Part shown: one piece after another, positions 5,984 through 58,425 of the stretch | How the letters are laid out: each line of letters starts with the position of its first letter | Position numbering within the stretch: the stretch's first letter is position 1 | Source of the DNA: Candidatus Nomurabacteria bacterium | GTDB taxonomy: Bacteria > Patescibacteriota > Minisyncoccia > Phycocordibacterales > UBA9973 | Assembly (NCBI GenBank): GCA_016699365.1 | Contig: CP064973.1 | Span: forward strand, 639,916-703,915 | Length of the DNA: 64,000 bases | Direction: 5' to 3' | Notes under the pieces: generated by a model | Databases searched by the model: none | What the model was told of the DNA's origin: nothing | Seen by the model: the letters and a program-made list of their open reading frames with translations, nothing else | Position numbers and translations under genes: made by a program

Positions 5984-6794
5984 TTATTTATGAAATCTAC
6001 CGAAAATCTTCTTTCCTGGATAAAGTGGTATAAGAGAACTTGTTACTTTTTTGTATTCATCAAACTCAGCATTACCTTTGTATCTTGCTTCTGTCATAGG
6101 AACACCGGAAACTTTCGTTATGAGATATGTGATAGTGAGCGGTCCAACTATACTCCACCAAGGAACGCCCGCAGATAGCGAAACTATCCACACTCCCCAC
6201 CACATAGTCACTTCACCGAAATAGTTCGGATGTCGAGTGAGGGACCAAAGGCCACTTTTCATAATCTTGCCTTTGTTTGCAGGATCTTTGAGAAACGTCG
6301 CAAGCTGTTTATCTCCTACTGATTCATATATGAATCCAATCACCCATATTCCCAAGGCCAACTATGTCCAAAACTGTCGGAAACATATTGCCTGCATTTT
6401 TCGACACAAGCATCACTGGTATAGATATGAGAAGTAGTAAAAAACCTTGAAGCAAGAATACTTGTAAGTAACTTCGTAAATAAAACCACTTTCCCCAATC
6501 CATTCTCCATTTTGCGTAACGAGGATCTTCGGCTTTGTTTTTGTTACGAGCATATATATGAGTAGCGAGCCTCATACCCCAGATGAAAACTAATAAAGCC
6601 AAAAATACACTTCGGATATCTAAAGAGCCGCTAATTATATATCCATAAAAAACAGAAACTACAGCAACTATTATAAAACCGAGCCCCCAACCTATGTCTG
6701 CAATATCATTGCGCTTGTTTATGATAGCGGCAACATACAAAAGAGACATGTAAACAAATATGAGTAATGAACAAATTATGAAAATGTTTTGCAT
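5984..6794 (-). pseudogene. DUF1295 family membrane protein (RHPNYFGE motif; steroid-5alpha-reductase/ICMT-like) disrupted by a +/-1 frameshift near 6340-6352
   Basis: Two overlapping minus-strand ORFs (6324-6794 and 5984-6361) in different frames together make one ~270-aa DUF1295-like protein. The junction reads ...TVLDIVGL | ALGIWVIGF... Confidence 0.55.
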
Positions 6795-8030: not shown

Positions 8031-9973
<1,943 letters not shown>

Positions 9974-9980
9974 ATATTTT

Positions 9981-10886
9981 TTAACTCACACTCGCCATAC
10001 CGGCACTAATTTCTGATATTTCTTTTGTGATCGCAGCCTGGCGTGCTTTGTTGAACGCTAGTGTCAGATCGTCGATCATCTCCCCAGCAGCCTCCGAAGC
10101 ATTCTTCATCGCCATCATGCGAGAAGACTGTTCAGATGCAGAAGATTCTAGAATCATCTGGTATACCTGCGCTCGTGCAATCTTTTCAACAAGCTTTGAC
10201 ATAAGAGCGTCGTAGCCCGGTTCGAAGACATAACTTACAGTTGACGGTTCTGAGACTACAGAAGGCTCAGAATCATTTTTACCCAAATGTTCAACAGACT
10301 CTTTCACTTCAGTTTTAGATATTGGGAGAATTGGTTTGATTGTTGGTTTGGAAACGAGAGCGGAAACAAAGTCTGTATATGCAATATACACTTTATCAAA
10401 TGAACCATTTGCAAAATCTTCAATCAAAAGGTTTCCGATTGGTGCAACGTCACGAAGTGTTGCGTTGTCTGGAAGTTCTGTAAATGATGCTACGATGTTT
10501 TGTCCGATACGACGAAGCGCTGCTTCTCCTTTTTTTCCAACAGCAACGAAACTCAGATTAACTTCTGTGTCGTTTTTTATCATATCAATAACACGTCGGA
10601 TGATCTGTGCATTGTATGCACCACAGAGTCCACGATTGGATGAAATGAGAACAACAAGAACATTCTTGACCTCGCGCTTTTTGAGTAGCGGATGCTCGCT
10701 TTCTGTTGAAATAGCAGACAAAGACTCGAGTATTTCCCATGATGCTCGTGCATATGGACGAGCAGAAAGAGTTGCGTTGACTGCACGCTTCATTTTGGAA
10801 GCAGAAACCAGCTCCATCGCTTTGGTTATCTTCTTCGTGTTTTTGACCGATTTGATTCGGCGCTTAATGTCTAGTGATCCTGCCAT
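9981..10886 (-). CDS. atpG: F1Fo ATP synthase subunit gamma
   Basis: N-terminal MAGSLDIKRRIKSVKNTKKITKAMELVSASKMKRA and C-terminal ...ITKEISEI match the gamma termini. Confidence 0.9.
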   Translation of the reverse strand: MAGSLDIKRRIKSVKNTKKITKAMELVSASKMKRAVNATLSARPYARASWEILESLSAISTESEHPLLKKREVKNVLVVLISSNRGLCGAYNAQIIRRVIDMIKNDTEVNLSFVAVGKKGEAALRRIGQNIVASFTELPDNATLRDVAPIGNLLIEDFANGSFDKVYIAYTDFVSALVSKPTIKPILPISKTEVKESVEHLGKNDSEPSVVSEPSTVSYVFEPGYDALMSKLVEKIARAQVYQMILESSASEQSSRMMAMKNASEAAGEMIDDLTLAFNKARQAAITKEISEISAGMASVS

Positions 10887-10890
10887 AAAA

Positions 10891-11208
10891 TTAGGAACCT
10901 ACTGAAAATAATAATATTATTCCTGCCACTGCAAATACACAGTTAACAGTTGAAACAGCCATCAATGTTATATCTTCTTTTATACGTCCAACATTCTCAG
11001 TCTTTCGCACATAGTTTATCAGGAACTTAATTACTCCGGTAAGCGAAAAAATAATAGTTAAAACTAATAGAGAAATTAGCGCAAGGAAAAGTAGGCGTAC
11101 CAAATCGCCAAGTTCATCTTGTTTGGCGAGCAAAAAAGTAAAAGACAATGATTCTGCAATCCAGAGAATCATAAGTCCAATATTAATTTTTAGCAGTCCG
11201 TTTTTCAT
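10891..11208 (-). CDS. hypothetical membrane protein (105 aa, 3 TM)
   Basis: ORF inside the atp operon between atpA and atpG. Confidence 0.35.
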   Translation of the reverse strand: MKNGLLKINIGLMILWIAESLSFTFLLAKQDELGDLVRLLFLALISLLVLTIIFSLTGVIKFLINYVRKTENVGRIKEDITLMAVSTVNCVFAVAGIILLFSVGS

Positions 11209-11232
11209 ATCAATTTATCCTTGGTATAAATA

Positions 11233-11451
11233 TTATCTAATTACTTGCTTACAGTAGTCCAGAGGATTATTTCTTTCTATTTTACCTATATTTATCCAAT
11301 CAATTTCTTTTGATATATTAGTAATGCATTCCTCATACGCCTTAAAAATAATCTTTTGATTAAAATAAAATCCAATAATTGCACAAATTCCAAAAAACAC
11401 TGGTAATCCAAGAATAAAAATTTTAAAAATAATATCTTTATAATTTTTCAT
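11233..11451 (-). CDS. hypothetical small membrane protein (72 aa)
   Basis: ORF inside the atp operon, one TM helix. Confidence 0.3.
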   Translation of the reverse strand: MKNYKDIIFKIFILGLPVFFGICAIIGFYFNQKIIFKAYEECITNISKEIDWINIGKIERNNPLDYCKQVIR

Positions 11452-11459
11452 AAAAATAA

Positions 11460-12962
11460 TTAATTAAACGTACTCTTAAAACTCTCAATTGTTTCTTTTA
11501 ATTTAGCTTCACTTGCATCCTCCCACATTTTCTTCTCAACAACATCAGCAATAAATTCTTTACAGTTTGCTTCTACATAGTCGATAAGCCCTGCTTCAAA
11601 TTCCTTGATCTTTGCTACAGGGATCGTGTCCATATATCCACGTGTGAGTGCGTAGAGAGATACCACTTGGTGCTGGACGAGCATTGGTGAGTATTGTGTT
11701 TGCTTCAATAGTTCAACTGCGCGACGTCCGCGTTCGATTTGGTTACGAGTGGCTTGGTCGAGGTCTGAACCGAATTGTGAGAACGCTTCGAGTTCACGGA
11801 ACTGTGCAAGGTCGAGCTTGAGTGTACCTGCAACTTTCTTCATAGCTTTGATTTGAGCAGAACCTCCCACACGTGACACAGAGAATCCGACGTTGACCGC
11901 AGGACGTACACCTTTGTAGAAAAGATCGGTTTCCAAGAATATTTGTCCGTCAGTAATAGAGATCACGTTTGTTGGGATGTATGCAGAGATGTCTCCAGCT
12001 TGAGTTTCGATGATAGGAAGAGCTGTGATAGATCCGCCTCCGTGTTCCTTGTTTCGTCGACACGCACGCTCCAAAAGTCGTGAGTGAAGGTAGAAAACAT
12101 CTCCAGGATACGCTTCACGTCCTGGTGGACGGCGAAGAAGAAGTGAGATTTCGCGATATGCAACTGCATGCTTTGAAAGATCATCGTAGATAATGAGTAC
12201 GTCTTGTCCTTTGTGCATGAAGTATTCTGCAACAGTCACACCTGCGTACGGTGCAAGGTATTGCATCGGAGATGGATCAGATGCTCCAGCTGAGACGATA
12301 ACAGTGTAGTCCATCGCCCCTGCTTCACGTAGACGAGTCTCGAGTGCGCGAAGTTTTGAATCTTTTTGTCCGATAGCGACATACACACAAGTCATATTCT
12401 GACCACGCTGGTTTAGTATTGCATCGATAGCAATAGCGGTCTTTCCAGTTTGACGGTCACCGATAATAAGTTCGCGCTGTCCTCGTCCAACTGGTACGAG
12501 TGCGTCGATAGCCTTGATACCTGTTTGCACTGGTTGGTCGACTGACTGTCGTGAGATAACACCCGGAGCAACAGATTCGATAGGCATTGTTTTTTCAACT
12601 TTAAAATCACCCTTACCATCGATTGGCTTTCCAAGTGGATCAACAACACGTCCAATAATACTGTCGCCTACTCCGATTTCAAGAATACGCCCTGTAAGAC
12701 GAACTTCCTGGCCTTCTTTGATACCAGTCTGACTTCCTAGGACGATAATACCCACTGTGTCGTCTTCAAGGTTTAGAGCAACACCAGTTGCACCACCTTC
12801 AAAAGTAACCATTTCTGACATTTTAACTCCACGAAGACCAGACACGCGCGCGATACCGTCACCGACTTCGAGCACTGTTCCGATTTCTTCACGAGTAACA
12901 TCACCATGGAAACCGGCGATTTCACTTTTCAATTGTTCAATTATGTGTTTTGTGTTGGACAT
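11460..12962 (-). CDS. atpA: F1Fo ATP synthase subunit alpha
   Basis: Walker [14 protein letters not shown], 500 aa. Confidence 0.95.
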
Positions 12963-12966
12963 ATGT

Positions 12967-13371
12967 TTATTTGGTTAGTGCTTGTCTAAATCTGTTTATT
13001 CGACCACTCAAGCTTGCGTCAATCAGGTACTCGTTTGTTTTTACTTTCCATCCCGCAAGAAGTGTTTTGTCTATTTTTTTATCTACTTCTACATCATCTG
13101 CTCCTACTTCTTTTTTAAAAATGCGAATTATTTCTTTTTCATGAGACTCGGATATTTTTTCAGGAGTTATAAGTTTCGCATACACTATCTTTTGTTGACC
13201 CGATGCGATTTTCTCAAATTTGGTAAGTATACTACCAAGCTTACCGAGCATCTTTCTTTTTTTTAGAAATCGCGCGTATGTATGTACTATCTTTGATACA
13301 TCTTCTACGCTATGTCCTTTTGATACTTCGTACAAAATATCAGCGTATTCTGTTGTGCTGTGTTTTTTCAT
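12967..13371 (-). CDS. atpH: F1Fo ATP synthase subunit delta (short form)
   Basis: C-terminal OSCP-like [33 protein letters not shown]. Sits in the canonical position between atpF and atpA. Confidence 0.65.
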
Positions 13372-15855: not shown

Positions 15856-15935
15856 GTAAATTTCTGCGATCCCGCCTCCTCGACCCCGTCGGGTCTGCGG
15901 CTCTCACAATGTGCCCCACACATTGTGAGCGTGGA
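15856..15935 (-). other. GC-rich structured trailer 3' of tRNA-Ile (11-bp stem CTCACAATGTG/CACATTGTGAG, GNRA-like hairpin GACCC-GACG-GGGTC, AATTTAC/GTAAATT stem)
   Basis: Read directly. A local GC spike in an AT-rich genome. The first stem shares nucleotides with the tRNA 3' acceptor strand. Confidence 0.35.
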
Positions 15936-15997
15936 TGGAATCGGACCATCGACCTCTGTCTTATCAGGACAGCGTTCTACCACTGAACTACACGCTC
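15926..15997 (-). tRNA. tRNA-Ile (anticodon GAU), 72 nt, CCA not encoded
   Basis: Manual fold of the minus strand. The acceptor stem GAGCGTG/CACGCTC is perfect. D-arm is GTTC-AGTGGTA-GAAC. Anticodon arm is CTGTC-CTGATAA-GACAG. T-arm is GATGG-TCCGATT-CCATC, with an atypical C at position 55. Discriminator is A. Confidence 0.8.
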
Positions 15998-16063
15998 AAA
16001 ACCCAATCTTTGAATTAAAAATGCCAAATGACTGGCGAAAAAACTATAGCAAAAAAAGCTCAT

Positions 16064-16094
16064 ATTAGCAAACAAAAAACCCTCACTTTCGTAA
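16064..16094 (-). terminator. intrinsic terminator downstream of the RRM-protein gene
   Basis: AAAACCCTTAC-GAAAG-TGAGGGTTTT followed by a T-run on the minus strand. Confidence 0.55.
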
Positions 16095-16113
16095 GGGTTT
16101 TTTGTATAAAAGC

Positions 16114-16422
16114 TTAGAACTCGCGTCTTTGTGGTCTGAAACCTCCTGAGCGTGCTCCGCCTTGTGGTCTATCACCTAGAGGACGTGCTTCGCTAACAGT
16201 TAGATTGCGTCCACCGAAATCTTTGCCGTTAAACATTTGGATAGCAGAATCTGCATCTGCGTCTTGATCCATCTCAACAAAGCCGAAACCTTTTGAGCGA
16301 CCAGACATCTTATCCATGATAATTGTTGCAGATAGAACTGCTCCTGCTTGCTCAAAATGTGATTTGAGCTCGTTGTCAGTTGTACTATAAGGTAAACCTC
16401 CAACGTATAATTTTTTTGCCAT
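16114..16422 (-). CDS. RRM-type RNA-binding protein (RNP1/RNP2) with Gly/Arg-rich tail
   Basis: RNP2 LYVGGLPY, RNP1 KGFGFVEM, C-terminal RPQGGARSGGFRPQRREF. Start reset to MAKKLYVGGL. Confidence 0.8.
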   Translation of the reverse strand: MAKKLYVGGLPYSTTDNELKSHFEQAGAVLSATIIMDKMSGRSKGFGFVEMDQDADADSAIQMFNGKDFGGRNLTVSEARPLGDRPQGGARSGGFRPQRREF

Positions 16423-16604
16423 ACATTGCATCACGCTCCCATCTTGCGATAGTGCGGACAAACTACTCTAGGAAACCTAGAAATTAATAAAGTACTCACA
16501 GCACTGTTACTTAAAACGTTGAGGTTTAACCCCCGAAACGAACAAGACTAACTAGACGCGAGAATACGTTTAGAAATATACCACAGTTGTATTAAATGAA
16601 CAAG

Positions 16605-17576
16605 TTATTCCTCTTCCGCATCTCCTACGGTTCCTGACATAAGACTATCTACAATCTTATCAATATTTCCAAGCATTATGTTCGGTATATTAGACCAAGA
16701 CTGCCTAATGCGATGATCTGTAACACGATCTTGTGGGAAGTTGTATGTGCGAATTTTCTCACTTCTATCCCCTGTTCCAATCTGACTTTTTCTATCTGCT
16801 GAATATTTTTTTGCATCCTCTTCTTCTTTCATTTGCTCCAATTTTGCCGACAAAATAGTAAGAGCTTTCTCGCGATTCTTCAACTGAGTTCTTTCAGAAG
16901 TACATCTCACATCTATTCCTGTAGGTTTATGGATAAGACGAACTGCAGTCTCAACCTTGTTTACGTTTTGTCCTCCAGCTCCTCCTGAACGGGAATATTC
17001 CATATCTAAGTCTGCCAAATTAATTTGGAATTTAATCTTCTTTTTTATAGGCAATACTGCAACAGAAGCAGTTGAGGTGTGTATTCGTCCATTCTTTTCG
17101 GTAGCAGGAACACGTTGAACTCTATGAACCCCAGTTTCATAACGAAGTTTTTTATATACATCATTACCCCTAATCTCGAAAGAGGCTTCTTTGTAGCCAC
17201 CAGTATCATTCATTGATTCATAGTTTTTTGTCCAACTCCAGCCTTCTTTTGCTGCGTATCGTTCATACATTTCAGCAAGCTGAAATGCAAACAACGAAGC
17301 TTCGTCACCTCCTGCTCCAGCTCTAACTTCAAGTACGATTTCATTTGGGAATTCCTCTTCTTCAACTTCTCGCGCGAGTATTGATTCGATCTGTTTAAAT
17401 AAACCCTCTTTTTCTATACGAAGTGTTTCAAGGTCGTTTTCTGCAAGTTCTTTTAGACTCGGATCAGAATCAAGCAACTCTTTTACAGATGCTTCGTTCT
17501 CCTCGATACGCTCAAGACTTTCAATTAGAAAACTTGTTTTGTAATCCTTCTTCAATTCTTCTCGATTTATTTCCAT
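16605..17576 (-). CDS. prfA: peptide chain release factor 1
   Basis: GGQ motif [11 protein letters not shown] and the RF1-specific PAT tripeptide in [12 protein letters not shown]. No programmed frameshift. Confidence 0.9.
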
Positions 17577-17647
17577 AGACTTATATTAACGTCCTAAATA
17601 CAAAAAAGAAACCCTTTTGGCCTCTTTTTTGTATAAATTAATTTTAG

Positions 17648-17863
17648 TTATTTTTTTGCAGCACTTTTTAGAGCACGCTTCTTGAATCTATCAACACGTC
17701 CAGCCGTATCTAGAACCTTTTCAGTTCCAGTAAAGTATGGGTGACATTGACTACAGATTTCAACAGTAATTGCTTCTTTTGTTGAGCCTACAGGAAAAGA
17801 CGCTCCGCATGCGCAAGAAACAAGTGCGTTTGTATAGTGTGTTGGGTGTATGTCTTTCTTCAT
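17648..17863 (-). CDS. rpmE: 50S ribosomal protein L31
   Basis: [10 protein letters not shown]...[13 protein letters not shown]...[10 protein letters not shown] is the L31 zinc-ribbon. Start reset to MKKDIHP. Confidence 0.85.
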
Positions 17864-17885
17864 ATCTGAGTACAATAGCACGATT

Positions 17886-19268
17886 TTATAAACCTTGCAA
17901 CGGGTCTATCATAGTTTCTTGGATAGTAGCCGCCTTGACCATAACCTGGTTTCCATAGAAGGAGTTTGCTGGTGAAGCTGCGTCACAAGATCTTCCAGAA
18001 TAGTATCTACAAGCAGCATTTCTTTCAGCTGTATAGGTTTTTGCATTTGCACCCAAATCTCCTAGATATATAGATGAAGCCATAAAAGCATCAGCTGGAT
18101 TCCATGGGTCAGGTACAGTTTTTCCTACAGCAGCACCGATTCTAGCCTGAAATAGCGCCCATGTTGAAGGTATAAACTGCGCAGGCCCCATAGCTCCTCC
18201 ATAACCGACTGTCCAAGGACAAGAAACTCGAGTTTTATACGGATCTCTTCCCAATGCTTTTGTAATATTCAAAAATGGAGTAACATCACGAGTTGGTTTC
18301 ATAACATTTAAAATAGTAGTTCCAGTATTTGCACCTACACCAGCCCCAGTCAAAGGATCAGACAAATAACATGAACCGACGTTTTTACCCAAGTTAGACT
18401 CCTGAGTCAAAATCGCCAACACAAAGGCTGGTCTCACACCTGTTTTCAAAGAAGCAGCCTCTGCGTATTTTAGAGCATCACCGAAAGGAATTGCACCTGT
18501 ATCACGAAGAGCAAAAAGTGCACTACGAATTTGCGCAGCTTTTTTCTGTCTCTCTGCTAGAAGTGCCTGGTATTCTTTTTCTTTGTTTTTACTAATTGAG
18601 AGAAGTTTTTGTTTCTCACTTTCAGATGTCTCAACTTTACGCTTAGCGCTTTCTATCTCTGCTTTTGCATCAAGCTCTTGATCTTGTTTCTTTCTCAACT
18701 CTTCTTTTTCATTTACAGTTATACCCTTCACCTCTTTTATCTCATCTACAGATTCTTTTATAGATTCTTGGATTGAAGAAAATGTATCTACGTCGTTATA
18801 AAAATCTGAAACAGTAGAATTTGTAAGTATCACATGCACAAAATTTGCATCATCAATTTGATGAGTCTTTCTAATTAGTTGAGCTAAAGATTCTTTAGTT
18901 TTGAAAAGTTTGTCATCTAAGTTGGTTATTGTTTTATTCTTTTCGTTTATTTCGCTCGTTAACTTACTTATAACCAAGTTTTTTGCTTTTATATTTAACT
19001 TAGCTTTTTCAATTTGAGTAGTTAGCACTTTTATGTCACCAGATATAGATGCTGACTGACCTTTTTGACTATTTAGTTCGGATGTCTTTTGGGCTATTTC
19101 TGCCTCCAGTTTGGCCAATTCTGCTTCCAAAACCTTCTTTTGGTCTTCAGCTATAGAAAGCTCTGAGGCGTAGACAGTATTTGGACCCGCCGCATAGAAA
19201 TAAGGTGATCCGACCAAGCTAATCAGAGTTAAAATCACTATTATTTTTGAGGTTATGTTCTTGAACAT
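17886..19268 (-). CDS. secreted coiled-coil protein with C-terminal lytic transglycosylase (MltB/SLT_2-like) domain
   Basis: Signal peptide [20 protein letters not shown], ~250 aa of heptad-rich sequence, then ...[11 protein letters not shown]...[13 protein letters not shown]. The start was reset because the track ORF overlaps rplY. Confidence 0.65.
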
Positions 19269-19341
19269 GTGGGTTATATTATAACATAACGAAAAACCCA
19301 CCTGTCTTGTGACAAGTGGATTTCTTTTTGGTTCAAAAATA

Positions 19342-19980
19342 TTATTCTGCTCCCTCTGCTCCTTCCTCTTCTTCTTTCTTGCCCTTCTTTTCAACTTCAA
19401 TTGCTGATAGATCGATTGGAGCTTCTTCTTTTTCTTCTTGCATAGGAGTAACTAACGCCACAACTTCATCTGGGGAAGTAACTAGAGTAACTCCACTTGG
19501 TAGAGATACATCTTTAGCGTGTATTTGATCGTCGAGAGTCTTTAGAACACTCAAGTCTACGCGCAATTCTTGTGGTAAATCTTTTGGTAGAGCACTTATT
19601 TCTATTTCGTACATAACCTTTGCTAGAGTTCCTAGACCATCCTTTACAGCATCTGAAACACCTTCAAATTCTATAGGAACATTTACAGTAACAGCCTTGT
19701 TTGTATCGATAGCAAGAAAGTCTACGTGTATAGGAGCGCCACTAACTGGATCAGTTTGTAGATCGTGTATAAGTGTAGCAACTTCTCCATCTGGAGTTTC
19801 TAGTGTTACCTGTGAAGATTCTCCTGCTTCTCTCCATACTTTCTTAAACGCCTTCATATCTACTGTTATTTACGTTGCCTCTTTTTTGAAACCATAAAAA
19901 ACAGCTGGTATTCTACCCTCTTTTCTAATATCTATTAGTTTGTCTCCCGCCTTGCGAGCTAATGCATTAAGTTTAAACAT
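19342..19980 (-). pseudogene. rplY: 50S ribosomal protein L25/Ctc (long form) interrupted by an in-frame TAA at 19872-19870
   Basis: The N-terminal 36 codons (MFKLNALARKAGDKLIDIRKEGRIPAVFYGFKKEAT) and the 171-aa ORF are in the same frame. They are separated only by TAA. Both halves align to Thermus TL5/L25 (recalled). Confidence 0.6.
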
Positions 19981-20022
19981 ATCTGGATAGTATACTCAAA
20001 AATTAAAATTGTAAAGCTTTTC

Positions 20023-21759
20023 TTAAGAAGAATGCTGGGTTATGGGCTGTTTTGGGTCAATAATATGGGTTTCTAGGTAGTTTTTGTCCTCAAAAACCTT
20101 CTTGTGAGGATTGAATATACCTTTGGGGTCAAACGTATTTTTAACTACCTCAAAAAGAGCACAGACTTCTTTGCCATACATTTTTTTCAAAAATGGTGTA
20201 CGAATCAGGCCGTCATTGTGCTCTGCGTCTATTGAACCATGATATGAAAGCACGAGCTCGTAAACTTTCTCTGAAAGCTCTAGAATTACAGGCTTAGTTT
20301 TTGGATCATTGAAATCCATAAGTGGAATTATGTGAAAATTCCCATTACCAGCATGTCCTGCAATTGTATAAGTAATTGTAGGATATTGATTCAATAATGT
20401 GTTTAGTTTTGGGAGAAATTCTGGCAGATGTTCTGGGCGCACAATAATATCATCAATGAAAGGTGCAGTTCTCCGACCCTTAACATGCTTGCGAAGTAGT
20501 GCAAAACTATCTCTACGTATTGTCCAATATTTTTCCGCTTCTTGGATACTTTTTGTAACACGTCCACGTAATTTAAATGGAGTGAGTTTATTCAGCACAT
20601 TTCTACATTTAACATCCAATTCTTCTTCGGTGCTACCAGTGTATTCAATCAATAAAATCAATTTTGGAACGCCACCTGTGAGAACAAGCCATAACTCAGG
20701 TAGAAAAGATAAGCCAAATTTTATAGTTCCAAATAATCCTTTGGTTTTTATAAAATCCATAAAGAATCTTACAGCTAGCATAAAGGTCTTGTTGTCGTAG
20801 CTTTCTACAGACTCTGGGTTTGTCTCAAGTATTGTATCTACAATCTCGCCGAGATTGTCTAGCTTGTCTAAAAATACTACTGCCAATTTAGAAGCAGAAG
20901 GTTTTTCGACTAGATAAAAAGTTATCTCTGTGTTTATACCAAGAGTGTCCTGAGAACCAACCAAAAGTTTAGTGAGATCAAATATATTTTCCTGTTCGTT
21001 TGTATTTTTCTTTAAAACATTCCAGAGATAATACCCTGCTGAATTTTTTGAAACATTTGGTCGCGCAGCATCGATAAGCGCCTGATTGTTTTCTATTAAA
21101 TCAAAAACTTTTTTATGAATTTGACCTTCTATATCTACTTGAGCAATTTTTGAATAAAGTTCTCTGCGATTTTCTGGACCAACTGTGTATGTGTGTCCAT
21201 CAGAAAAAACAGTTCGGAGACTTGCAACATAGTCCTCAGTCTTTCCATAGCGAAGAGTTAGCTCCCCACCAGAATTATTTCCAACCATTCCTCCAACTGC
21301 GTTTATGCTTTTAGACGCCGTATAGCAAGGTAGTAAAAGATTCAATTTATCTGCTTCTATTTCAAAATCTCTATAAAAACATCCAGGTTCAACAACAGCC
21401 TTACCTACAACTGTCACCGGTTTCGCTCCAGGAAAGAGAGGTTGAATAGTAAACGGGATTACTCGTTCAATCTTTTTGATTTTATTCATGTACTTTGTAA
21501 AGTCCATGATTATAGATTCATTGAGTGGACCGCCAGACATACAAGTACCTGCCGCACGCGCAGTAAGCGAAAGATCGGGATATTTTGCCTTGTTATCGTT
21601 TACCCATTGAACCAAGTTTTCTATATCCTTTTCGTTTTTAGGAAAAACGACTAGCTTTGGGCGTACTTCGAACAAACTCGCATCGTGCGAATATTTCGTA
21701 AGTACTTCATCACTGTCTTCAACATCGCCCGCAAAAAACTTTTTTATTTCTTCTTTCAT
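20023..21759 (-). CDS. FAD-binding oxidoreductase (PCMH-type FAD_binding_4 + FAD-oxidase C; GlcD/D-lactate dehydrogenase-like)
   Basis: 578 aa with an FAD-binding PCMH segment (VVFPKNEKDIENLVQWVN...ARAAGTCMSGG). Confidence 0.65.
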   Translation of the reverse strand: MKEEIKKFFAGDVEDSDEVLTKYSHDASLFEVRPKLVVFPKNEKDIENLVQWVNDNKAKYPDLSLTARAAGTCMSGGPLNESIIMDFTKYMNKIKKIERVIPFTIQPLFPGAKPVTVVGKAVVEPGCFYRDFEIEADKLNLLLPCYTASKSINAVGGMVGNNSGGELTLRYGKTEDYVASLRTVFSDGHTYTVGPENRRELYSKIAQVDIEGQIHKKVFDLIENNQALIDAARPNVSKNSAGYYLWNVLKKNTNEQENIFDLTKLLVGSQDTLGINTEITFYLVEKPSASKLAVVFLDKLDNLGEIVDTILETNPESVESYDNKTFMLAVRFFMDFIKTKGLFGTIKFGLSFLPELWLVLTGGVPKLILLIEYTGSTEEELDVKCRNVLNKLTPFKLRGRVTKSIQEAEKYWTIRRDSFALLRKHVKGRRTAPFIDDIIVRPEHLPEFLPKLNTLLNQYPTITYTIAGHAGNGNFHIIPLMDFNDPKTKPVILELSEKVYELVLSYHGSIDAEHNDGLIRTPFLKKMYGKEVCALFEVVKNTFDPKGIFNPHKKVFEDKNYLETHIIDPKQPITQHSS

Positions 21760-22493
21760 TTGGATCCTTCTATTATATCTAAAACATCTTTTGCAGAATT
21801 TTCTCCAATAAATTTCTCAAACAAATGGAGATTGTCTAGATTGTAAAGTATAGCTACAACAGAAATTATTGATACCACGAATGCGGATTTTAAAACTGAA
21901 CCAAGAAGAAAGCCAACAGAAGGAATAACTGTAACTGTTGCCAATAGTATAAACATAAAAAAGAATATCAAAAACCATTGAAATACGGGAATACGTTCTT
22001 GAAAAATCATAACCATATTTTTTCGCAAAACCTGACAATCACTCAAGTTTGAGAGTACTCTCCCTAGAGATTGGTTACGTAAACTTTCTTGCTTGTTATT
22101 TCCTACTTCTTCTTCTAAAATATCGTGCATTCTGGTTATGGTATTGGATTTGTGAGTAAAGTGATAATCCCAAGATTTGGAATCTACAACTTTTTGATAA
22201 TGATCTTTTATTATTTCTCCAAATCTATCTTGGATACTTTTTGAAATATTTCCAGAAACTCTATATATACCTGACATCTTACCGTCAAAAGTACTTATAA
22301 TTTCTCGTATTTTTGTATATCGATTCCCTTGTCTGGTTATGAAAAATCCAGTAAAGATTGAGAAAAAGAAAGTTGTAATAGTTATAAAAACTCTATCTGT
22401 ATTTTCAGCTCCAACCGGCACCATAAAGTATATATATGATAGAACAATAAAAAGTAAGACTAGGATTATTTCGATTTTATTCCTTATGTGCAT
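21756..22493 (-). CDS. hypothetical membrane protein (245 aa)
   Basis: ORF track, multiple TM helices, overlaps the downstream gene by 4 nt. Confidence 0.45.
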   Translation of the reverse strand: MHIRNKIEIILVLLFIVLSYIYFMVPVGAENTDRVFITITTFFFSIFTGFFITRQGNRYTKIREIISTFDGKMSGIYRVSGNISKSIQDRFGEIIKDHYQKVVDSKSWDYHFTHKSNTITRMHDILEEEVGNNKQESLRNQSLGRVLSNLSDCQVLRKNMVMIFQERIPVFQWFLIFFFMFILLATVTVIPSVGFLLGSVLKSAFVVSIISVVAILYNLDNLHLFEKFIGENSAKDVLDIIEGSK

Positions 22494-22495
22494 AA

Positions 22496-23368
22496 TTATT
22501 GTAAATGATTAAATAATTTTAATCTCGCTTCTACTACTGCCTCGATTGCATCTACTGCTGGTCCTAAAATCTTTGCTGGAGTTATTTCGTTTGGATTTTC
22601 TTCTATGGCTTCTTTTACTTCATCTCTGAAGGCGAGACGTATCTCTGAGTTTATGTGCACAACTGAAACCCCAGCCTTGATTGCATTCGTAAAGTCCTCA
22701 TCTCGAAGACCTGAACCACCGTGCAATACAAGAGGAATCTTTACTGTGTCTTTTATTTCTTTCACCAAGTCTGCATCTATATGAGGCTTGCCGGATTTTA
22801 TAAGTCCATGGATAGAACCAACAGATGGAGCGAACATGTCCACTCCTGTCTCGTCAACAAACTTCTTTGCGTCTTCAGGTTTAGTCAAAACTCCAGCACC
22901 CTCTGGAATAGAATCTTTTATATCTGAACCAGAACCTATGTAGCCGAGCTCAGCTTCAACTAAAATATCTCGGCCAGTATTTTTACTAACCTCGCGTGCA
23001 TAATCTACACACTGTTTAGTTATTTTTACATTTTCATCGAAAGATAGCTTTGCTCCATCAAATATAACCATATCAAATCCTGCATCTATACAGACCCTAA
23101 CTGATTCGAATGATCCGTGGTGATCAGCGTTCAAGAAAATAGGATAATCATCGCGTTCGCGAATAGTTTTTACAAGTGCGGCAACCTCTTCGATTCCAGC
23201 AAATTTTTGCTCCCCTTCTGAAACTCCGATTATAACTGGTAAATTTAATTTCTTTGCTGCATTGTATATTCCATGCAATGCCTCTAGGTTTGAAATATTG
23301 AAGTGCCCTATAGCAACTCCCTTCGTATCAGCATCTTGTATATATTCACGTAATGTTTTCATATGCAC
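22496..23368 (-). CDS. fba: class II fructose/tagatose-bisphosphate aldolase
   Basis: GHFNISNLE, HxDHG-type metal site ADHHGSF, LVLHGGSG. Confidence 0.85.
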   Translation of the reverse strand: MHMKTLREYIQDADTKGVAIGHFNISNLEALHGIYNAAKKLNLPVIIGVSEGEQKFAGIEEVAALVKTIRERDDYPIFLNADHHGSFESVRVCIDAGFDMVIFDGAKLSFDENVKITKQCVDYAREVSKNTGRDILVEAELGYIGSGSDIKDSIPEGAGVLTKPEDAKKFVDETGVDMFAPSVGSIHGLIKSGKPHIDADLVKEIKDTVKIPLVLHGGSGLRDEDFTNAIKAGVSVVHINSEIRLAFRDEVKEAIEENPNEITPAKILGPAVDAIEAVVEARLKLFNHLQ

Positions 23369-23415
23369 AGTATACCCTATAGAATAATCAGCTCAAACTC
23401 TGTTATAATATCCAT

Positions 23416-24423
23416 ATGTTATTTAGTAAAAAACCCTATGACTTTGTCGCGATCGGAGATATTGTAACCGACGCATTTATAAAACTAAAAGATGCATCTA
23501 CACACTGCAAGCTCGACCAGAGTGCATGTGAGCTTTGTGTGCGCTTTGGAGACAAAGTACCATTTGAATCTGTAGAAATAATTCCTGCTGTTGGAAACTG
23601 TGCAAATGCGGCCGTATCTGCAAGTCGACTTGGTTTAAAAAGTGCTCTAGTGTCAACCGTTGGAGATGACCAAAACGGAAAAGACTGTCTGATGGCTCTA
23701 GAAAAAAATGGAGTTTCTACAGATTATATGCGCACCAATAGTGAATTCCCAACAAACTATCACTATGTACTTTGGTATGACGTGGAGCGAACAATACTTG
23801 TAAAGCATGCACCATTCCCCCACTCTCTTCCAAAAAATATGCGAGCTCCAAAGTGGATATATCTAACATCTCTCGGTGAGAATTCTGTAGAATTTCATGA
23901 AGAAATCGCAAATTATTTAAAATCTCATCCAGAAACTAAGCTCGCATTTCAACCGGGAACTTTCCAAATAAAACTAGGAACTGAAAAACTGAAACACATC
24001 TATTCAGTTACGGAAATATTTTTCTGTAACGTAGAAGAAGCACAGAGAATTCTAAACTCAACCGAAACAGACAAGTTGAAACTTATGGACATGCTTCACG
24101 TACTTGGACCAAAGATAATCGTAATGACTGACGGGATAGCGGGTGCATATGCACGAGAAGAATCTGGAACAAGCTGGTTTATGCCAGTATACCCTCACAC
24201 ACCTTTTGAGCGCACTGGAGCGGGTGATGCTTTTGCTTCAACTATCGCAAGTACAATTGCTATGGGTAAAAGTCTAAAAGAAGCTCTGTATTGGGCACCT
24301 ATAAACGCAATGTCAGTAACACTACAAGTCGGCGCGCAAAAAGGACTATTAACAAAAAACAAAATCGAAGAGCTTCTCGCACAAGCACCTAGCGACTACA
24401 AACTCAAAAACCTGCGTAACTAG
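23416..24423 (+). CDS. PfkB-family carbohydrate kinase
   Basis: N-terminal GDIVTD...GG..N.A and the C-terminal anion hole GAGDAFASTI. Confidence 0.75.
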   Translation: MLFSKKPYDFVAIGDIVTDAFIKLKDASTHCKLDQSACELCVRFGDKVPFESVEIIPAVGNCANAAVSASRLGLKSALVSTVGDDQNGKDCLMALEKNGVSTDYMRTNSEFPTNYHYVLWYDVERTILVKHAPFPHSLPKNMRAPKWIYLTSLGENSVEFHEEIANYLKSHPETKLAFQPGTFQIKLGTEKLKHIYSVTEIFFCNVEEAQRILNSTETDKLKLMDMLHVLGPKIIVMTDGIAGAYAREESGTSWFMPVYPHTPFERTGAGDAFASTIASTIAMGKSLKEALYWAPINAMSVTLQVGAQKGLLTKNKIEELLAQAPSDYKLKNLRN

Positions 24424-24470
24424 TTTGACCAAACTAGAATTTCCTAGTATAGTTTTAAAAAAGTAAAAAG

Positions 24471-24977
24471 ATGGGAGAACTTACAGAAGGTACATTGAAA
24501 CGCCTTTCTTTTGATTCAGCAGAAAGAGCGATAAATTTTTGTATAAAAAGTAGCGAGGGAAAGACTCATATAACTGGAGGAAGATTCAAAATATTCCTTC
24601 CTTATATTGAATCTATTGGGGAAAACCTACCCTTGCGATGGAAAGAAATAAACAGAGATATCGTATGCAAAGAAGCAATTTTAAGAACGCTTCTAAGAGA
24701 CATCGACACTGAACTGGAAATCCGAAAAGTGTTGATATGGCATCTAAATGATATAAATTTATTTCGTGATATCTGCGCAATGAAAAAATCGCATCTATCA
24801 AAAAAAGAAACAGCTAAAGCTGAATGCCTCGACTGGATTCTTGCGGAGCTAAATATATCTCGGCAATATCTACAAGACGAATTAAAGAAAATAGAAGAAA
24901 AAATTTTTTCTATGAAGTCTACTCAAGAACGTTCCCATAATACACTTATGGAAATGCGAAATAGACTTCTAAACTAA
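24471..24977 (+). CDS. hypothetical protein (168 aa)
   Basis: Intact ORF with a terminator downstream. Confidence 0.45.
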   Translation: MGELTEGTLKRLSFDSAERAINFCIKSSEGKTHITGGRFKIFLPYIESIGENLPLRWKEINRDIVCKEAILRTLLRDIDTELEIRKVLIWHLNDINLFRDICAMKKSHLSKKETAKAECLDWILAELNISRQYLQDELKKIEEKIFSMKSTQERSHNTLMEMRNRLLN

Positions 24978-25003
24978 AAAAAGGTCCCATTTGGGACCTT
25001 TTA
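24978..25003. terminator. bidirectional intrinsic terminator (AAAGGTCCCA-TT-TGGGACCTTT)
   Basis: Perfect stem between the convergent genes. Confidence 0.6.
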
Positions 25004-25005
25004 AT

Positions 25006-25995
25006 TTATCTATTCAAAACTTTTTGTATTGCGTCTTTTATAGCTTCGCGTCCCATACCATAGTGCTCTATGAGCTCAAGAGGCGTTCCTGACTGACCAA
25101 ACTTATCTTTTACTCCGATAAATTCTATTGGTACTGGGAACTCCTCTGCGAGTACTTCCGCCACAGCTGAACCCATACCTCCCATAACCTGATGTTCCTC
25201 TACAGTCACGATATGTTTTGTTTCTTTTGCGAGCGCTATGATTCCACTCCTATCTATCGGCTTGATTGTTGCAAGATTCATCACTTTCACTTTTATTCCT
25301 TTTTTTTCTAAATCGCGTGCAGCGAGTATTGCATTTCGAACAAGTGCACCAGTTGCGATCACACCAACATGTGCGATGCCGTCTGGTTCATAAAAGATTT
25401 GTGACTTACCAATTTCAAATGGAGTCTCATCTGTTGTCATAATACCAGTCTTCTCACGAGCAAGGCGTAAGTATGCAGGCTTTCCAAGCTTCGCAAGTGC
25501 CAAAGTTGCTTTGCGAGCCTCTGTTGCGTCACATGGCGAAATTACAACCATGTTTGGCATCGTGCGCATGATAGCCATGTCTTCGATAGCCTGGTGCGTT
25601 CCACCGTCTGGGCCGACAGAGATTCCTGCATGACTTCCGACGATTACCACCGGTCGATCATTGTAAGCGATAGTAGTGCGTATCTGTTCCCAGTTTCTTC
25701 CAGGAGAAAACATTGCATAACTAGAGCAAAATGGAACCTTCCCCATCGCAGCCATACCTGAAGCAACAGTTACAAGATTTTGTTCTGCTACACCAATCTC
25801 TACAAATCTTTCCGGAAATTTTGCCTTAAACTTATCCATCTTTGTACTCTCAGTCAGATCAGCACAGAGCGCTACAACATTTTTATCTTCTTCCCCAGCT
25901 TTTACTAAGCCATCACCAAAGCCAGAACGAATTGGAATTTGTTCCACATCATCATTGAAAAGTTTTGTATTCAGTTTTAATTTAGGATTTAACAT
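25006..25995 (-). CDS. transketolase, C-terminal (pyrimidine-binding) subunit
   Basis: 329 aa split-type transketolase C-terminal half. Confidence 0.85.
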   Translation of the reverse strand: MLNPKLKLNTKLFNDDVEQIPIRSGFGDGLVKAGEEDKNVVALCADLTESTKMDKFKAKFPERFVEIGVAEQNLVTVASGMAAMGKVPFCSSYAMFSPGRNWEQIRTTIAYNDRPVVIVGSHAGISVGPDGGTHQAIEDMAIMRTMPNMVVISPCDATEARKATLALAKLGKPAYLRLAREKTGIMTTDETPFEIGKSQIFYEPDGIAHVGVIATGALVRNAILAARDLEKKGIKVKVMNLATIKPIDRSGIIALAKETKHIVTVEEHQVMGGMGSAVAEVLAEEFPVPIEFIGVKDKFGQSGTPLELIEHYGMGREAIKDAIQKVLNR

Positions 25996-25997
25996 TT

Positions 25998-26246
25998 TTA
26001 ATTTTCACTTACAAAAGTAAATCTTTCTATACTTTTTCCATCTATATCTTTTTTACCTAAAAAATTATCTTTGTTCCTACAGTATATTCTCCAGCCTGTA
26101 TGCGCTAGATCAGTAAGTCTCTCGTAAACTACAACATCTGTCAGGTCCGCGTCTTTAAATTTAGCAAGAGTTACTATCTTGTACGTATCTCCTTTGTAGT
26201 GTTTCCAAATTTGTCCAGGTTTAATTTCCATATTATTGATGCTCAC
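25998..26246 (-). CDS. DUF1653-like small protein inserted between the transketolase halves
   Basis: The pattern QIWKHYKGDTYKI...VVYE is the DUF1653 signature (from memory). Confidence 0.45.
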   Translation of the reverse strand: MSINNMEIKPGQIWKHYKGDTYKIVTLAKFKDADLTDVVVYERLTDLAHTGWRIYCRNKDNFLGKKDIDGKSIERFTFVSEN

Positions 26247-27096
26247 TTTTAATTTTCCCTCCCAAAGTTCGAAGTTCTTTTAATGCCATATCAGCCTGCT
26301 CCTTGTTTGGCGGAATTCCATGCCATTTGAAATCTCGTTCAAATTCTTTTACACCTTTACCTGGAATTGTACGTGCGATTATGATTGATGGTTTTTCATA
26401 AACTGCTTTTGCTTTCATGATCGCAGACTCCATCGCCAAAAAATTATGTCCATCTACTTCCTGAACATGCCAGTTAAAACTCTCGAATTTTTTTACCAAA
26501 TCATCGAGCGGCATTATGTCTTCGGTATATCCATCTATTTGAATATTATTTCTATCAACTATAGCGATCAGATTGTGGAGTCTTTCCTTTGCACCAAGCA
26601 TCACGGCTTCCCAATTGTTTCCTTCGTTTAGCTCACCATCACCTAACAAGCAATAAAAATATTTATCGCTTCTGTTAGTGTTGTCTATTCTATCTGCTAT
26701 TGCCATACCAACTGCTTGCGAGAGCCCTGAACCAAGAGGTCCAGAACTTGTCTCAAGCCAAGGCATGAATTCACGATGAGGATGGCCTTGCAAGCGAGAA
26801 CCAAACTTCCGTAAAGTTTTCAATTCTTCCAGAGGAAAATACCCCGCGTGCGCCATAGTCGCATAGTACACAGGACAAATATGTCCGTTTGATAACACCA
26901 CTCGATCACGCTCTGACCAATCAGACTTTTTAGGATCATGTTTTAGTATATGAAAAAAAAGTAGAGTAAAAATATCACTCATACCTAAAGGTCCAGCAGT
27001 ATGACCACTTCCAGCTTCTAGTAACATTTCAATTATAGACTTACGAATATCGTTTGCCTTTAATTCAAGCTCTTCGATTTTTTTATCACTCAACAT
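26233..27096 (-). CDS. transketolase, N-terminal (TPP-binding) subunit
   Basis: GHTAGPLGMSD, GDGELNEGNNWEA. Confidence 0.85.
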   Translation of the reverse strand: MLSDKKIEELELKANDIRKSIIEMLLEAGSGHTAGPLGMSDIFTLLFFHILKHDPKKSDWSERDRVVLSNGHICPVYYATMAHAGYFPLEELKTLRKFGSRLQGHPHREFMPWLETSSGPLGSGLSQAVGMAIADRIDNTNRSDKYFYCLLGDGELNEGNNWEAVMLGAKERLHNLIAIVDRNNIQIDGYTEDIMPLDDLVKKFESFNWHVQEVDGHNFLAMESAIMKAKAVYEKPSIIIARTIPGKGVKEFERDFKWHGIPPNKEQADMALKELRTLGGKIKSEHQ

Positions 27097-39259: not shown

Positions 39260-40312
39260 ATGCAAAATATAACTTTCGGAATCATTGGGGCAATAGTAGC
39301 CGGGCTTCTAGTCTACTTTCTAACTCGAAATAAAAAAGATAACTCAAGTATAACCAACGACAAAAGTCTGGGGCTGTTGTTGCAACAAATGAACGAACTT
39401 ACTCGCACAGTAGACGCAAAACTCGGTGAATCTCAAAAGCATGTTTCCGAATCTATGCGTTTCCAGTCTACAGAGACTTCACGTATCATCGCCGACATAA
39501 CAGAGCGTCTAACTCGACTCGACGAAACAAACAAACAGGTTGTATCTTTTACTGACCAACTCCAGAGCTTGCAAGATATTTTAAAAAATCCAAAACAACG
39601 TGGAATACTAGGCGAATACTATCTAGAAACACTTTTGAAAAATGTAATGCCCCCAGGATCCTACCAGATGCAATATCCTTTTTCTGACGGGACGATTGTA
39701 GACGCAGCTGTTTTTGTAAAAGACAAAATTATTCCAATCGATTCAAAATTCTCTCTTGAAAACTATAACCGAATATCAGAAACAAATGATCCAAACGAGA
39801 AAGAGCGCTTAGAGAAAGTTTTTACAAACGACCTAAAGAATCGTATCGTAGAAACCTCAAAGTACATACAACCAGAAAATGGAACTATGGAATTTGCTTT
39901 TATGTTTATACCTCATGAAGCGATCTACTATGATTTGATAGTAAACAAAATCGGAGCAATTACTGAAGACACGGAAAATCTTATTCAACGTGCTGCAAGT
40001 AAATACAAAGTAATTATAGTTTCACCTACTTCATTCCTTGCATACTTGCAGACTGTTCTACAAGGATTAAAAGCAATGCAAATAGAAGAAAGCGCAAAGG
40101 ATATAGTAAAACGTGTAGGAGAACTCGGTAAACATTTAAAATCTTATGAAGATTTTCACAATAAACTTGGGAACGCTCTCGGCACAACAATCAATCATTA
40201 CAACAACGCCGGAAAAGAACTCAAGAAAGTAGACAAAGATATTTTGCGCATTACTGGAATGCAAAATGAAATTGAACCCGTGTTGTTAGAAAAACTAGAT
40301 AAAGAAGAATAA
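39260..40312 (+). CDS. rmuC: DNA recombination protein RmuC
   Basis: N-terminal TM, long coiled coil, C-terminal RmuC nuclease-like domain. Confidence 0.75.
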   Translation: MQNITFGIIGAIVAGLLVYFLTRNKKDNSSITNDKSLGLLLQQMNELTRTVDAKLGESQKHVSESMRFQSTETSRIIADITERLTRLDETNKQVVSFTDQLQSLQDILKNPKQRGILGEYYLETLLKNVMPPGSYQMQYPFSDGTIVDAAVFVKDKIIPIDSKFSLENYNRISETNDPNEKERLEKVFTNDLKNRIVETSKYIQPENGTMEFAFMFIPHEAIYYDLIVNKIGAITEDTENLIQRAASKYKVIIVSPTSFLAYLQTVLQGLKAMQIEESAKDIVKRVGELGKHLKSYEDFHNKLGNALGTTINHYNNAGKELKKVDKDILRITGMQNEIEPVLLEKLDKEE

Positions 40313-40920
40313 TGGAAGTTATAATTGGAACAATAGCCGGCGCAAGCGCACTTGCCGGATTAAAAAAAGTTTTCGACCGAGCTCCGAAACGTAAAATCCC
40401 AGAGAGTGGAATTGTTTCCCCTGCTTCAGGAAAAGTAATTGAAATTGTAGATATAGATCCGACAAAATTTGAATTTGTAAAAAAGAAAATAAAGAATTCT
40501 GTCTCACTTCCTGGGCTTGGCACAAGCGCTAAAATGATTGTAATAGAAATGAATATCCGCGATGTCCACGTCCAGCGCGCACCAATCGAAGGAGTAGTCA
40601 CCTACTCAAAACATTTTTCTGGAAAACACAAAAATGTAATCCACAGCAAAGGCAAAAAAGATTCTGTATACATAAACGAAAAACAAATCACTGTTATAAA
40701 AGGTAGAGATTTTTCGACTTGTGTAATCCAAGTTGCTGGCTTTGTAGCCAGACGTATAAGATCTCGAGTTCATATAAATCAATTCGTAAAAAAAGGTGCA
40801 GTCATCGGTAAAATCTCTTTCGGATCTCAGACAATACTTATATTACCTAATACACTAAATATAAAAATCCGTATAGGCGACAGAGTTACAGACGGAGAAA
40901 CTCTAATAACACAAAATTAA
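40312..40920 (+). CDS. phosphatidylserine decarboxylase-related protein (short archaeal-type)
   Basis: SPASGKV, HVQRAP, FGSQTILIL (candidate GS self-cleavage site). Confidence 0.55.
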   Translation: MEVIIGTIAGASALAGLKKVFDRAPKRKIPESGIVSPASGKVIEIVDIDPTKFEFVKKKIKNSVSLPGLGTSAKMIVIEMNIRDVHVQRAPIEGVVTYSKHFSGKHKNVIHSKGKKDSVYINEKQITVIKGRDFSTCVIQVAGFVARRIRSRVHINQFVKKGAVIGKISFGSQTILILPNTLNIKIRIGDRVTDGETLITQN

Positions 40921-40946
40921 AACCGCTCGATTGAGCGGTTTGCTTT

Positions 40947-41765
40947 TTATATATTTAAAATAAATTTGCATTGCCTGATAACTTCTATTGGACCGTGGTT
41001 GCGTTCAATAAAATATCTCACTGCATCATAAACATATCTTTCGTGACCTGCATGAAGAGCAAGTCCTTCTGATACAGGAATCCAGCTAACACTTTCAACT
41101 TCACTTTTATCAAGACCGTAAAAGGTGTCGATAAATTTATCCTTCGGAAGAAAGGCAAAGAATACGGTTGTCTCAATCCATGCGTTATCGGTATTCCGAT
41201 AATCATCGGAATATTTCCTATACATTCTCTTCACAAGACGCTGGTCGAAATTTTTAAATTGAGGAACCTCTTCGCCAAGCTCACGTAGAGCGGCTGTGAC
41301 TTTTGACTCACCTTTGTCTACCATTCCACCTACAACAGCATTCATACCGTTGTCTGCGCGTTTGATTGCTAAAAAACAAAGCAAGCCAGTTCTTGGATGA
41401 ACTGTAACCATGACAATATCCACTGCACGATTGGCTCCCCATTGATACAAAAGCCCTCTACCTCTAATACCTGTTCTTCCACAAGGATTAAGGGGTCGAC
41501 CTTCTATATCGTGAGCTATCCTATGGATAACTTTACTAAATCTCTGGTTGATATTTTTATAAGCATCCTCGGCTTCAATTTCTCCAGCCATGCTCTTTTT
41601 AAGAACAGAATCATGCACAAAATATGGAGGATCGTACTCAGGCCAATCAATAGCCCAGCACCCTTTATCTTCTGGAACGAAAAACCTTTCTGGATAACTA
41701 TCCGGCTTTTTTGTTCTAGCAATATTATGAACCTTTTTTAATATCTCTAAATTTCTTCTTGGCAT
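40947..41765 (-). CDS. NUDT9-like ADP-ribose pyrophosphatase (Nudix)
   Basis: NPCGRTGIRGRGLLYQWGANRAVDIVM matches NUDT9 [26 protein letters not shown] (memory). Nudix box GGMVDKGESKVTAALRELGEEV. Start reset to MPRRN. Confidence 0.65.
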   Translation of the reverse strand: MPRRNLEILKKVHNIARTKKPDSYPERFFVPEDKGCWAIDWPEYDPPYFVHDSVLKKSMAGEIEAEDAYKNINQRFSKVIHRIAHDIEGRPLNPCGRTGIRGRGLLYQWGANRAVDIVMVTVHPRTGLLCFLAIKRADNGMNAVVGGMVDKGESKVTAALRELGEEVPQFKNFDQRLVKRMYRKYSDDYRNTDNAWIETTVFFAFLPKDKFIDTFYGLDKSEVESVSWIPVSEGLALHAGHERYVYDAVRYFIERNHGPIEVIRQCKFILNI

Positions 41766-41774
41766 ATTATGAAT

Positions 41775-41803
41775 TTGACAAAGTATACAATATTTCGTAC
41801 AAT
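41775..41803 (+). promoter_or_regulatory. sigma70-like promoter for nadE (TTGACA-17-TACAAT)
   Basis: Read directly. Confidence 0.5.
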
Positions 41804-41841
41804 ATATCAAGACCTGAGGTCATTTTAAATTATTTCCTCAG

Positions 41842-41862
41842 ATAGTGTACTTTATACTCTAA
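41842..41862. promoter_or_regulatory. candidate NrtR operator A: ATAGTGTACTTTATACTCTAA (palindromic arms TAGTGTA/TACTCTA, GT-N7-AC core)
   Basis: Read directly. Lies 19 bp upstream of the nadE ATG in the divergent region shared with the NUDT9-like gene. 16/21 identical to site B. Confidence 0.45.
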
Positions 41863-41880
41863 ATACTATATACTAAAGAT

Positions 41881-52283: not shown

Positions 52284-52286
52284 AAA

Positions 52287-54572: not shown

Positions 54573-54605
54573 TTGACAGTTTTAACACCCTTTTGGTATA
54601 CTTTC
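54573..54605 (+). promoter_or_regulatory. sigma70-like promoter (TTGACA-18-TATACT) giving a leaderless transcript at ATG 54609; divergent from the repressor gene
   Basis: Read directly. Confidence 0.4.
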
Positions 54606-54608
54606 CCT

Positions 54609-56787: not shown

Positions 56788-56802
56788 AGCAGGCACTTAA
56801 AC

Positions 56803-58353: not shown

Positions 58354-58425
58354 TCGCGAGTATGCGACGTATCTCTAGTTCTGCATAGACTATGCACCAC
58401 CAACTGGTCTGTCATTAATTAATAT

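Follow-up and report, generated by a model that had tools for sequence, protein, structure and literature searches.

A private in-frame TAA in the bL25/CTC gene rplY of a Candidatus Nomurabacteria assembly: consensus error or recent nonsense mutation

The analyzed window, a 64,000-nucleotide stretch of a Candidatus Nomurabacteria bacterium genome assembly, contains an rplY gene for the long-form ribosomal protein bL25/CTC whose reading frame is broken by a TAA at codon 37, a position that is sense in every relative covering it. The TAA occurred in this assembly only among the collections searched, the window follows the standard genetic code, and two further conserved genes within it are broken by frameshifts absent from their closest relatives. 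Judged from these comparisons, the stop is probably a consensus or assembly error in a metagenome-assembled genome, with considerable room for doubt; a very recent nonsense mutation is the main alternative.

An interrupted long-form bL25 gene

On the minus strand, an ATG (19980-19978) was followed by 36 sense codons (MFKLNALARKAGDKLIDIRKEGRIPAVFYGFKKEAT), an in-frame TAA (19872-19870) as codon 37, and another 175 codons in the same frame (ITVDMKAF...) up to a TAA at 19344-19342. The preliminary description had reported a TAA after codon 36 of rplY, and this was confirmed, with the frame continuing to 19342. Compared to the TCA (Ser) codon of close relatives, the stop represents a single C-to-A change on the gene strand, at 19871, where the plus strand reads T. 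The features of the locus were as follows.

19342-19980, minus strand: conceptual rplY over its whole length, a long-form bL25/CTC gene of 212 codons and a stop, broken at codon 37 (Pfam, NCBIfam, and PDB matches)
19873-19980, minus strand: N-terminal 36-codon fragment of rplY (Pfam L25p profile positions 1-32)
19870-19872, minus strand: in-frame TAA, codon 37 of rplY (TCA, Ser, in close relatives)
19342-19857, minus strand: downstream rplY ORF from the ATG at codon 42, 171 aa (QQR76597.1)
19989-20015, minus strand: promoter-like element, TTTACA (20015-20010), 15-nt spacer, and TATACT (19994-19989), kept in relatives
19998-20002, minus strand: run of five T in the promoter spacer (T6 in all relatives)
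19292-19325, minus strand: terminator-like hairpin and T run directly 3' of rplY (from the sequence)
19849-19878, minus strand: five private substitutions, at 19878, 19873, 19871, 19852, and 19849 (comparison with conspecifics)

With the stop bridged as X, residues 5 to 88 matched Ribosomal_L25p (PF01386; profile positions 2-82 of 82, E 1.8e-17), residues 97 to 179 matched the C-terminal domain of the long form, Ribosomal_TL5_C (PF14693; E 4e-22), and the 212-aa protein scored 131.3 bits against the NCBIfam equivalog TIGR00731 (bL25/CTC; cut-off 73.1). The initial assignment of the gene as rplY, encoding a long-form L25, was thereby borne out. The L25p profile was split by the stop, with the 36-aa piece matching positions 1-32 and the downstream ORF positions 41-82 (Pfam), indicating that the N-terminal domain is interrupted by the stop but stays colinear across it. 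The colinearity with TL5 proposed in the preliminary description was confirmed against PDB chains (E 2e-30): the window protein aligned with Thermus thermophilus TL5 (PDB 1FEU) over residues 3-206, including the acidic/lysine-rich C-terminal tail. The same combination of Ribosomal_L25p and Ribosomal_TL5_C is found in Deinococcus CTC and Bacillus subtilis Ctc. The frame is broken at codon 37 in the window, but in no other listed member of the family; apart from this, the gene appears to be a standard long-form bL25/CTC member. By homology, the two pieces belong to a genuine interrupted gene rather than a chance pair of ORFs. A second copy of L25 was sought within the 64-kb window and was not found.

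An alignment of 15 bL25 sequences showed invariant columns at R9, P25-G30, K33, and T36. Within the 5S rRNA-binding domain, conservation is highest in the part that the 36-codon fragment encodes, with R9 and PAVFYG (residues 25-30). In the assembled frame, the TAA separates the invariant R9 and PAVFYG from H85 and D87, while the frame is unbroken in all relatives. A product started at AUG42 would be without the first, conserved third of the 5S rRNA-binding domain, including R9 and PAVFYG, and could hardly function as a normal bL25.

This shorter product is the one that has entered the public databases. QQR76597.1 (NCBI, "50S ribosomal protein L25," Candidatus Nomurabacteria bacterium), located on a 705,143-bp contig, was identical to the window's 171-aa downstream ORF, so the public L25 annotation begins at Met42; the record (P0122) was one of four members in the 90% cluster of the best homologue. 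By itself, the 171-aa ORF still passed TIGR00731 (97.3 versus 73.1 bits), which is probably why the record was named L25. Among some 15 billion collected protein sequences, the only occurrence of the truncated product was the record derived from this window, and the window's rplY allele did not occur in intact form. The finding is chiefly a curation matter: the public record is an N-terminally truncated L25 without the conserved RNA-binding N terminus, and surveys of ribosomal proteins in CPR would score it as present and intact. Its practical worth lies in correcting the public annotation and in the caution that it offers to such surveys.

The TTTACA-TATACT promoter proposed in the preliminary description was found, with a 15-nt spacer. 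It was kept in the lineages with 97% and 85% identity, with variable flanks, although the spacer is 16 nt in the relatives compared to 15 nt in the window, owing to a 1-nt deletion that changed T6 to T5. TATACT ends 8 nt upstream of the rplY ATG, and the rplY mRNA would therefore be leaderless or nearly so; the leaderless reading made from the sequence at the outset fits both the rplY sequence and the conservation of the promoter. A Shine-Dalgarno sequence was missing from most genes in the window, and many had a TGnTATAAT-type -10 box 6 to 10 nt before the ATG (e.g., those with ATGs at 19268, 21759, 23416, 27096, 30454, 39260, 45107, and 47197). This suggests that leaderless transcripts are widespread in the window, with rplY following the same pattern.

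Codon 37 in relatives and further lesions in the window

Conspecific contigs were found via exact matches of the neighboring 460-aa transglycosylase-like protein and 323-aa release factor, and the contigs from close relatives came from the NCBI MAG contig JAGOQN010000003.1, several ENA assemblies, and Logan runs. NCBI has two MAGs of this species, GCA_017991335.1 and GCA_018061905.1. Codon 37 was TCA (Ser) in all 16 close-relative contigs covering the site, 13 of which had 98.9% DNA identity in rplY and 99.6% over 7.3 kb. The conspecific contigs, which come from many samples, encode intact 212-aa rplY orthologues. TCA was likewise found in the 96.9% lineage, whereas the 85% lineage had CCT (Pro) at each of its four loci; codon 37 was a sense codon in all 20 related loci covering the site. 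A homology search gave more than 7000 bL25 proteins, of which the best 120 were examined (207-240 aa; Patescibacteria, Paceibacteria/"Nomurabacteria"). None of these best 120 was truncated, and residue 37 was S, P, A, L, or M in each of them. The comparison of orthologous codons, proposed earlier as a check, thus identified no relative with a stop, and the window's rplY carries a disabling lesion relative to its intact orthologues.

The TAA allele of the window has the 33-mer GAGGCAACGTAAATAACAGTAGATATGAAGGCG. A degenerate DNA pattern across the stop site gave only the 85% relative in the GTDB genomes and nothing in the JGI metagenomes, and the contig index had no exact match to the 36-aa fragment, the 171-aa ORF, or the neighboring 578-aa protein. 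Across the GTDB genomes, JGI metagenomes, and contig index, no second assembly with the TAA allele was found. From these searches, the codon-37 stop appears to be private to one assembly.

The stop is one of the five private substitutions listed above, of which two are synonymous, two non-synonymous (T35A and N43K), and one nonsense; three of the five are transversions. The preliminary description had listed a single-base error among its options, and the stop is indeed a one-base change, but it lies within this private cluster and is not isolated. In the block from 15925 to 23400, 29 differences from the JAGOQN-type strain were counted in 7476 nt, and at least five differences within some 30-nt interval of this block would be expected with P ~4e-5. 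The background differences over 16 kb were mostly synonymous (82 synonymous versus 23 non-synonymous, with 81 of 105 at third codon positions), and the non-synonymous excess of the rplY cluster was weakly significant (Fisher p = 0.085). Past the stop, the 171 codons differed from those of conspecifics at just two positions, indicating that rplY has not decayed. Elsewhere in the window, differences cluster at multiples-of-three spacing and look like recombination tracts; the rplY cluster could therefore also have been genuinely imported or have arisen by multi-nucleotide mutation. When a donor lineage for the five substitutions was sought, Ala35 alone was seen elsewhere (L032, P0013, P0026) and the other variants were private.

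When overlapping ORFs on the same strand were screened with Pfam, two other broken genes were identified in the window.

45848-47141, plus strand: pncB (nicotinate phosphoribosyltransferase), +1 frameshift at the G run 46572-46575 (five intact conspecific contigs)
5984-6794, minus strand: gene for a DUF1295 steroid-reductase-like (steroid-5-alpha-reductase-like) membrane protein, +1 frameshift at the G run 6351-6353 (88% homologue)

In pncB, the NAPRTase_N and catalytic domains were in different frames. The G run is GGGG in the window compared to GGG in five conspecific contigs encoding an intact 430-aa protein (GGAACTTGGGCCC in conspecifics, GGAACTTGGGGCCC in the window), with nearly identical surroundings, and this is essentially a single-base difference. 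In the DUF1295 gene, profile positions 2-125 and 124-235 were in different frames, and the G run is GGG in the window compared to GG in the closest relative, with 88% aa identity (GGCCTTGGAG in this homologue, GGCCTTGGGA in the window). All 120 homologues listed for this protein were single proteins of 244 to 279 aa. The reference for the lesion was the 88% homologue alone for DUF1295, and conspecific strains for rplY and pncB. Each of the two frameshifts consists of one additional G in a short G run right after CTTGG, and the recurrence of this context looks like a systematic error. Further Pfam screens detected no more split genes in the window. The NAD-salvage cluster around pncB was otherwise intact, with the following genes.

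41881-43857: nadE
43861-44541: nrtR
44538-45107: nadD-like
45259-45861: pncA
47197-48039: nadK

We regard pncB and the DUF1295 gene as probable further false pseudogenes in this stretch. It was also observed that a conspecific, low-coverage short-read contig (L036; ENA ERZ2272275, 3.8x) has its own pncB split at another site (715-2003; 105 aa and 330 aa), i.e., apparent pncB frameshifts arise in other assemblies too.

Origin of the stop codon

Residual consensus errors, in the form of short-homopolymer indels and local miscalls, create apparent pseudogenes in MAG and long-read genomes. The lesions of the window are of a similar kind, i.e., private lesions, +1 insertions in G runs, a change in a T run, and a tight patch of substitutions. 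If the codon-37 TAA is such an error, rplY would be an ordinary conserved gene for a two-domain bL25/CTC, a 5S rRNA-binding protein of the central protuberance in the 50S subunit, with a promoter of its own and a leaderless mRNA; TAA would stand in place of TCA through a local consensus error in one assembly, the organism would make a normal 212-aa bL25, and the 171-aa public "L25" would be an annotation artefact. Several observations point in this direction. TCA was present in 16 of 16 close-relative contigs and the truncated product is known only from the window's own record; the private cluster has an atypical spectrum (three transversions, three protein-changing) compared to the mostly synonymous background; the T6-to-T5 change in the promoter spacer is private as well; and rplY shows no decay past the stop. 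The two other frameshifted conserved genes, both with an additional G after CTTGG, shift the balance further towards consensus error, and what was found here is a private lesion accompanied by other private, error-like lesions. Since all three gene lesions are absent from the closest relatives, and given the shared context, the T-run change, and the substitution patch, we favor residual consensus errors over three separate inactivations, all of very recent date. The identity of the gene, the position and privacy of the stop, the standard code, and the presence of other private lesions are shown by the data; that these lesions arose as errors rather than mutations is what we infer from the sequence comparisons. 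Against this, the assembly is otherwise clean: over about 29 kb compared with conspecifics, the indels named above were the only ones in low-divergence stretches, and every other checked gene was intact. This accuracy, save for a few lesions, counts in favor of the main alternative, a genuine nonsense mutation of very recent date that is confined to a strain or population; rplY would then be a pseudogene of young age or a null allele that is still segregating. We consider this quite possible but less likely than an error. Translation of the leaderless mRNA would then stop at codon 37, and the cell would live without functional bL25 like many CPR lineages. bL25 is among the ribosomal proteins lost most often (PMC9297842; bioRxiv 10.1101/755876; PMC4408793), including in CPR and other small genomes, and it is missing in about half of the CPR phyla among the complete genomes examined in PMC9297842. 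In Escherichia coli, it is dispensable, with a viable, slow-growing rplY knockout (bioRxiv 10.1101/755876; PMC4408793), and a real knockout would therefore be biologically tolerable. The allele also has a promoter spacer of 15 rather than 16 nt and two amino acid changes beside the stop, which could be early decay, and three broken genes in about 74, although a high number, are possible in a real genome. A nonsense mutation is harder to reconcile with a stop seen in one assembly when 99.6% identical conspecifics from many samples are intact, with an undecayed downstream part of rplY, and with two frameshifts in an identical CTTGG+G context in conserved enzymes, one of them inside an intact pathway cluster. 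Known losses of bL25 (about half of the CPR phyla, Mollicutes, and tiny-genome symbionts) have removed the gene from whole clades, whereas the rplY of the window is complete, undecayed, and intact in 99.6% strains. If real, the stop would add a lineage to these losses, as a strain-level null allele at most, and would give a modest strain-level snapshot of bL25 loss where the lineage otherwise conserves the protein. Loss of bL25 is a known evolutionary trend and not a new mechanism. The closest known phenomena are therefore assembly-derived false pseudogenes or, failing that, evolutionary loss of bL25, neither of which is new. The behavior of long-read consensus errors is taken in part from PMC8518188.

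Stop-codon readthrough had been named as a third option beside assembly error and recent pseudogenisation; the latter two are left standing, while readthrough is disfavored. A real stop with functional bL25 made either by UAA readthrough or by re-initiation at AUG42, giving pieces of 36 and 171 aa, would mean that an ultra-small bacterium has a ribosomal protein that is naturally split or recoded. AUG42 lies 12 nt past the stop in an A-rich, unstructured stretch, the downstream 171-aa ORF is intact, and since most window genes are without a Shine-Dalgarno sequence, close-range re-initiation is conceivable. What this situation shares with programmed readthrough or recoding is nonetheless limited to an in-frame stop within a conserved gene. 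The stop is not conserved (all 20 related loci and the 120 listed homologues have a sense codon at the orthologous position), and M42 is conserved only in the closest lineages. UAA is the most used terminator of the window, the context TAAA is ordinary, being the same as at the ends of 19 window ORFs, and an RF1-type gene (16605-17576, minus strand) lies 2.3 kb from rplY. The RNA downstream of the stop had no unusual structure (z = 0.08) or other stimulatory context, Rfam gave no match at the stop, and a single tRNA (Ile-GAT) and no suppressor tRNA was detected in the whole window. The cut through the N-terminal domain, which parts the invariant R9 and PAVFYG from H85 and D87, also speaks against two cooperating pieces, and we regard a functional readthrough or split product as very unlikely. 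Reassignment of TAA to a sense codon in the lineage would be expected to leave many in-frame stops and a depletion of TAA as a terminator. The one in-frame TAA in rplY is all that speaks for it, a single case in about 74 ORFs, and TAA terminates 60 of the 74 window ORFs of at least 90 aa, consistent with the standard code assumed at the outset. When window ORF pairs split by one stop were checked, no further gene with an in-frame stop was found: nadE/nrtR, ThsA/ThsB, the small and large terminase, and other one-stop in-frame pairs were considered as interrupted genes and rejected, all being separate genes. About 20 kb of syntenic genes had lengths equal to those in relatives, and together with the presence of an RF1 gene, these data suggest that reassignment is so improbable that it can be taken as excluded for practical purposes.

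Other observations in the window

The RF1-like release factor has 323 aa and matches RF1 models from about position 42, with the usual N-terminal ~40 residues missing. This length is common to all relatives, and the score is under the NCBIfam equivalog cut-offs. The possibility that the gene is a prfB with a programmed +1 frameshift was considered and rejected, as its RF1 score (376 bits) exceeded that for RF2 (224 bits), and no frameshift site but a terminator-like hairpin was found in the 72-nt gap upstream of it.

Divergence from the conspecific MAGs (L023 and L034) was strongly mosaic, at 9300-13000, 23600-26750, and 39350-43650. Long stretches with 99.6 to 100% identity alternate with 93 to 97% tracts of third-codon-position changes (e.g., in atpA, atpG, and nadE), a pattern that fits strains recombining often by homology. 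Between atpH and atpA, the JAGOQN-type strain has an additional 74-aa ORF (L023 17051-17275) that is missing in the window (12962-12967), and the gene content of the atpA-atpG interval (window 10893-11454) differs between strains.

The window of this Patescibacteria genome also contains a complete Thoeris-type defense locus (51741-53638, minus strand; PADLOC matches, E 1e-64 to 1e-82), with the following genes.

53126-53638, minus strand: ThsB (TIR)
52287-53129, minus strand: ThsA (Macro domain)
51741-52283, minus strand: second ThsB (TIR)

The region adjoining this locus (about 53886-60847) resembles a mobile element or the remnant of a prophage, and its genes are given below.

53886-54572: S24/LexA-like repressor
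55188-56462: N6/N4 DNA methylase
56449-58353: small HTH protein and terminase-large-like protein
58426-59706: serine recombinase
59699-60847: T5orf172-domain protein
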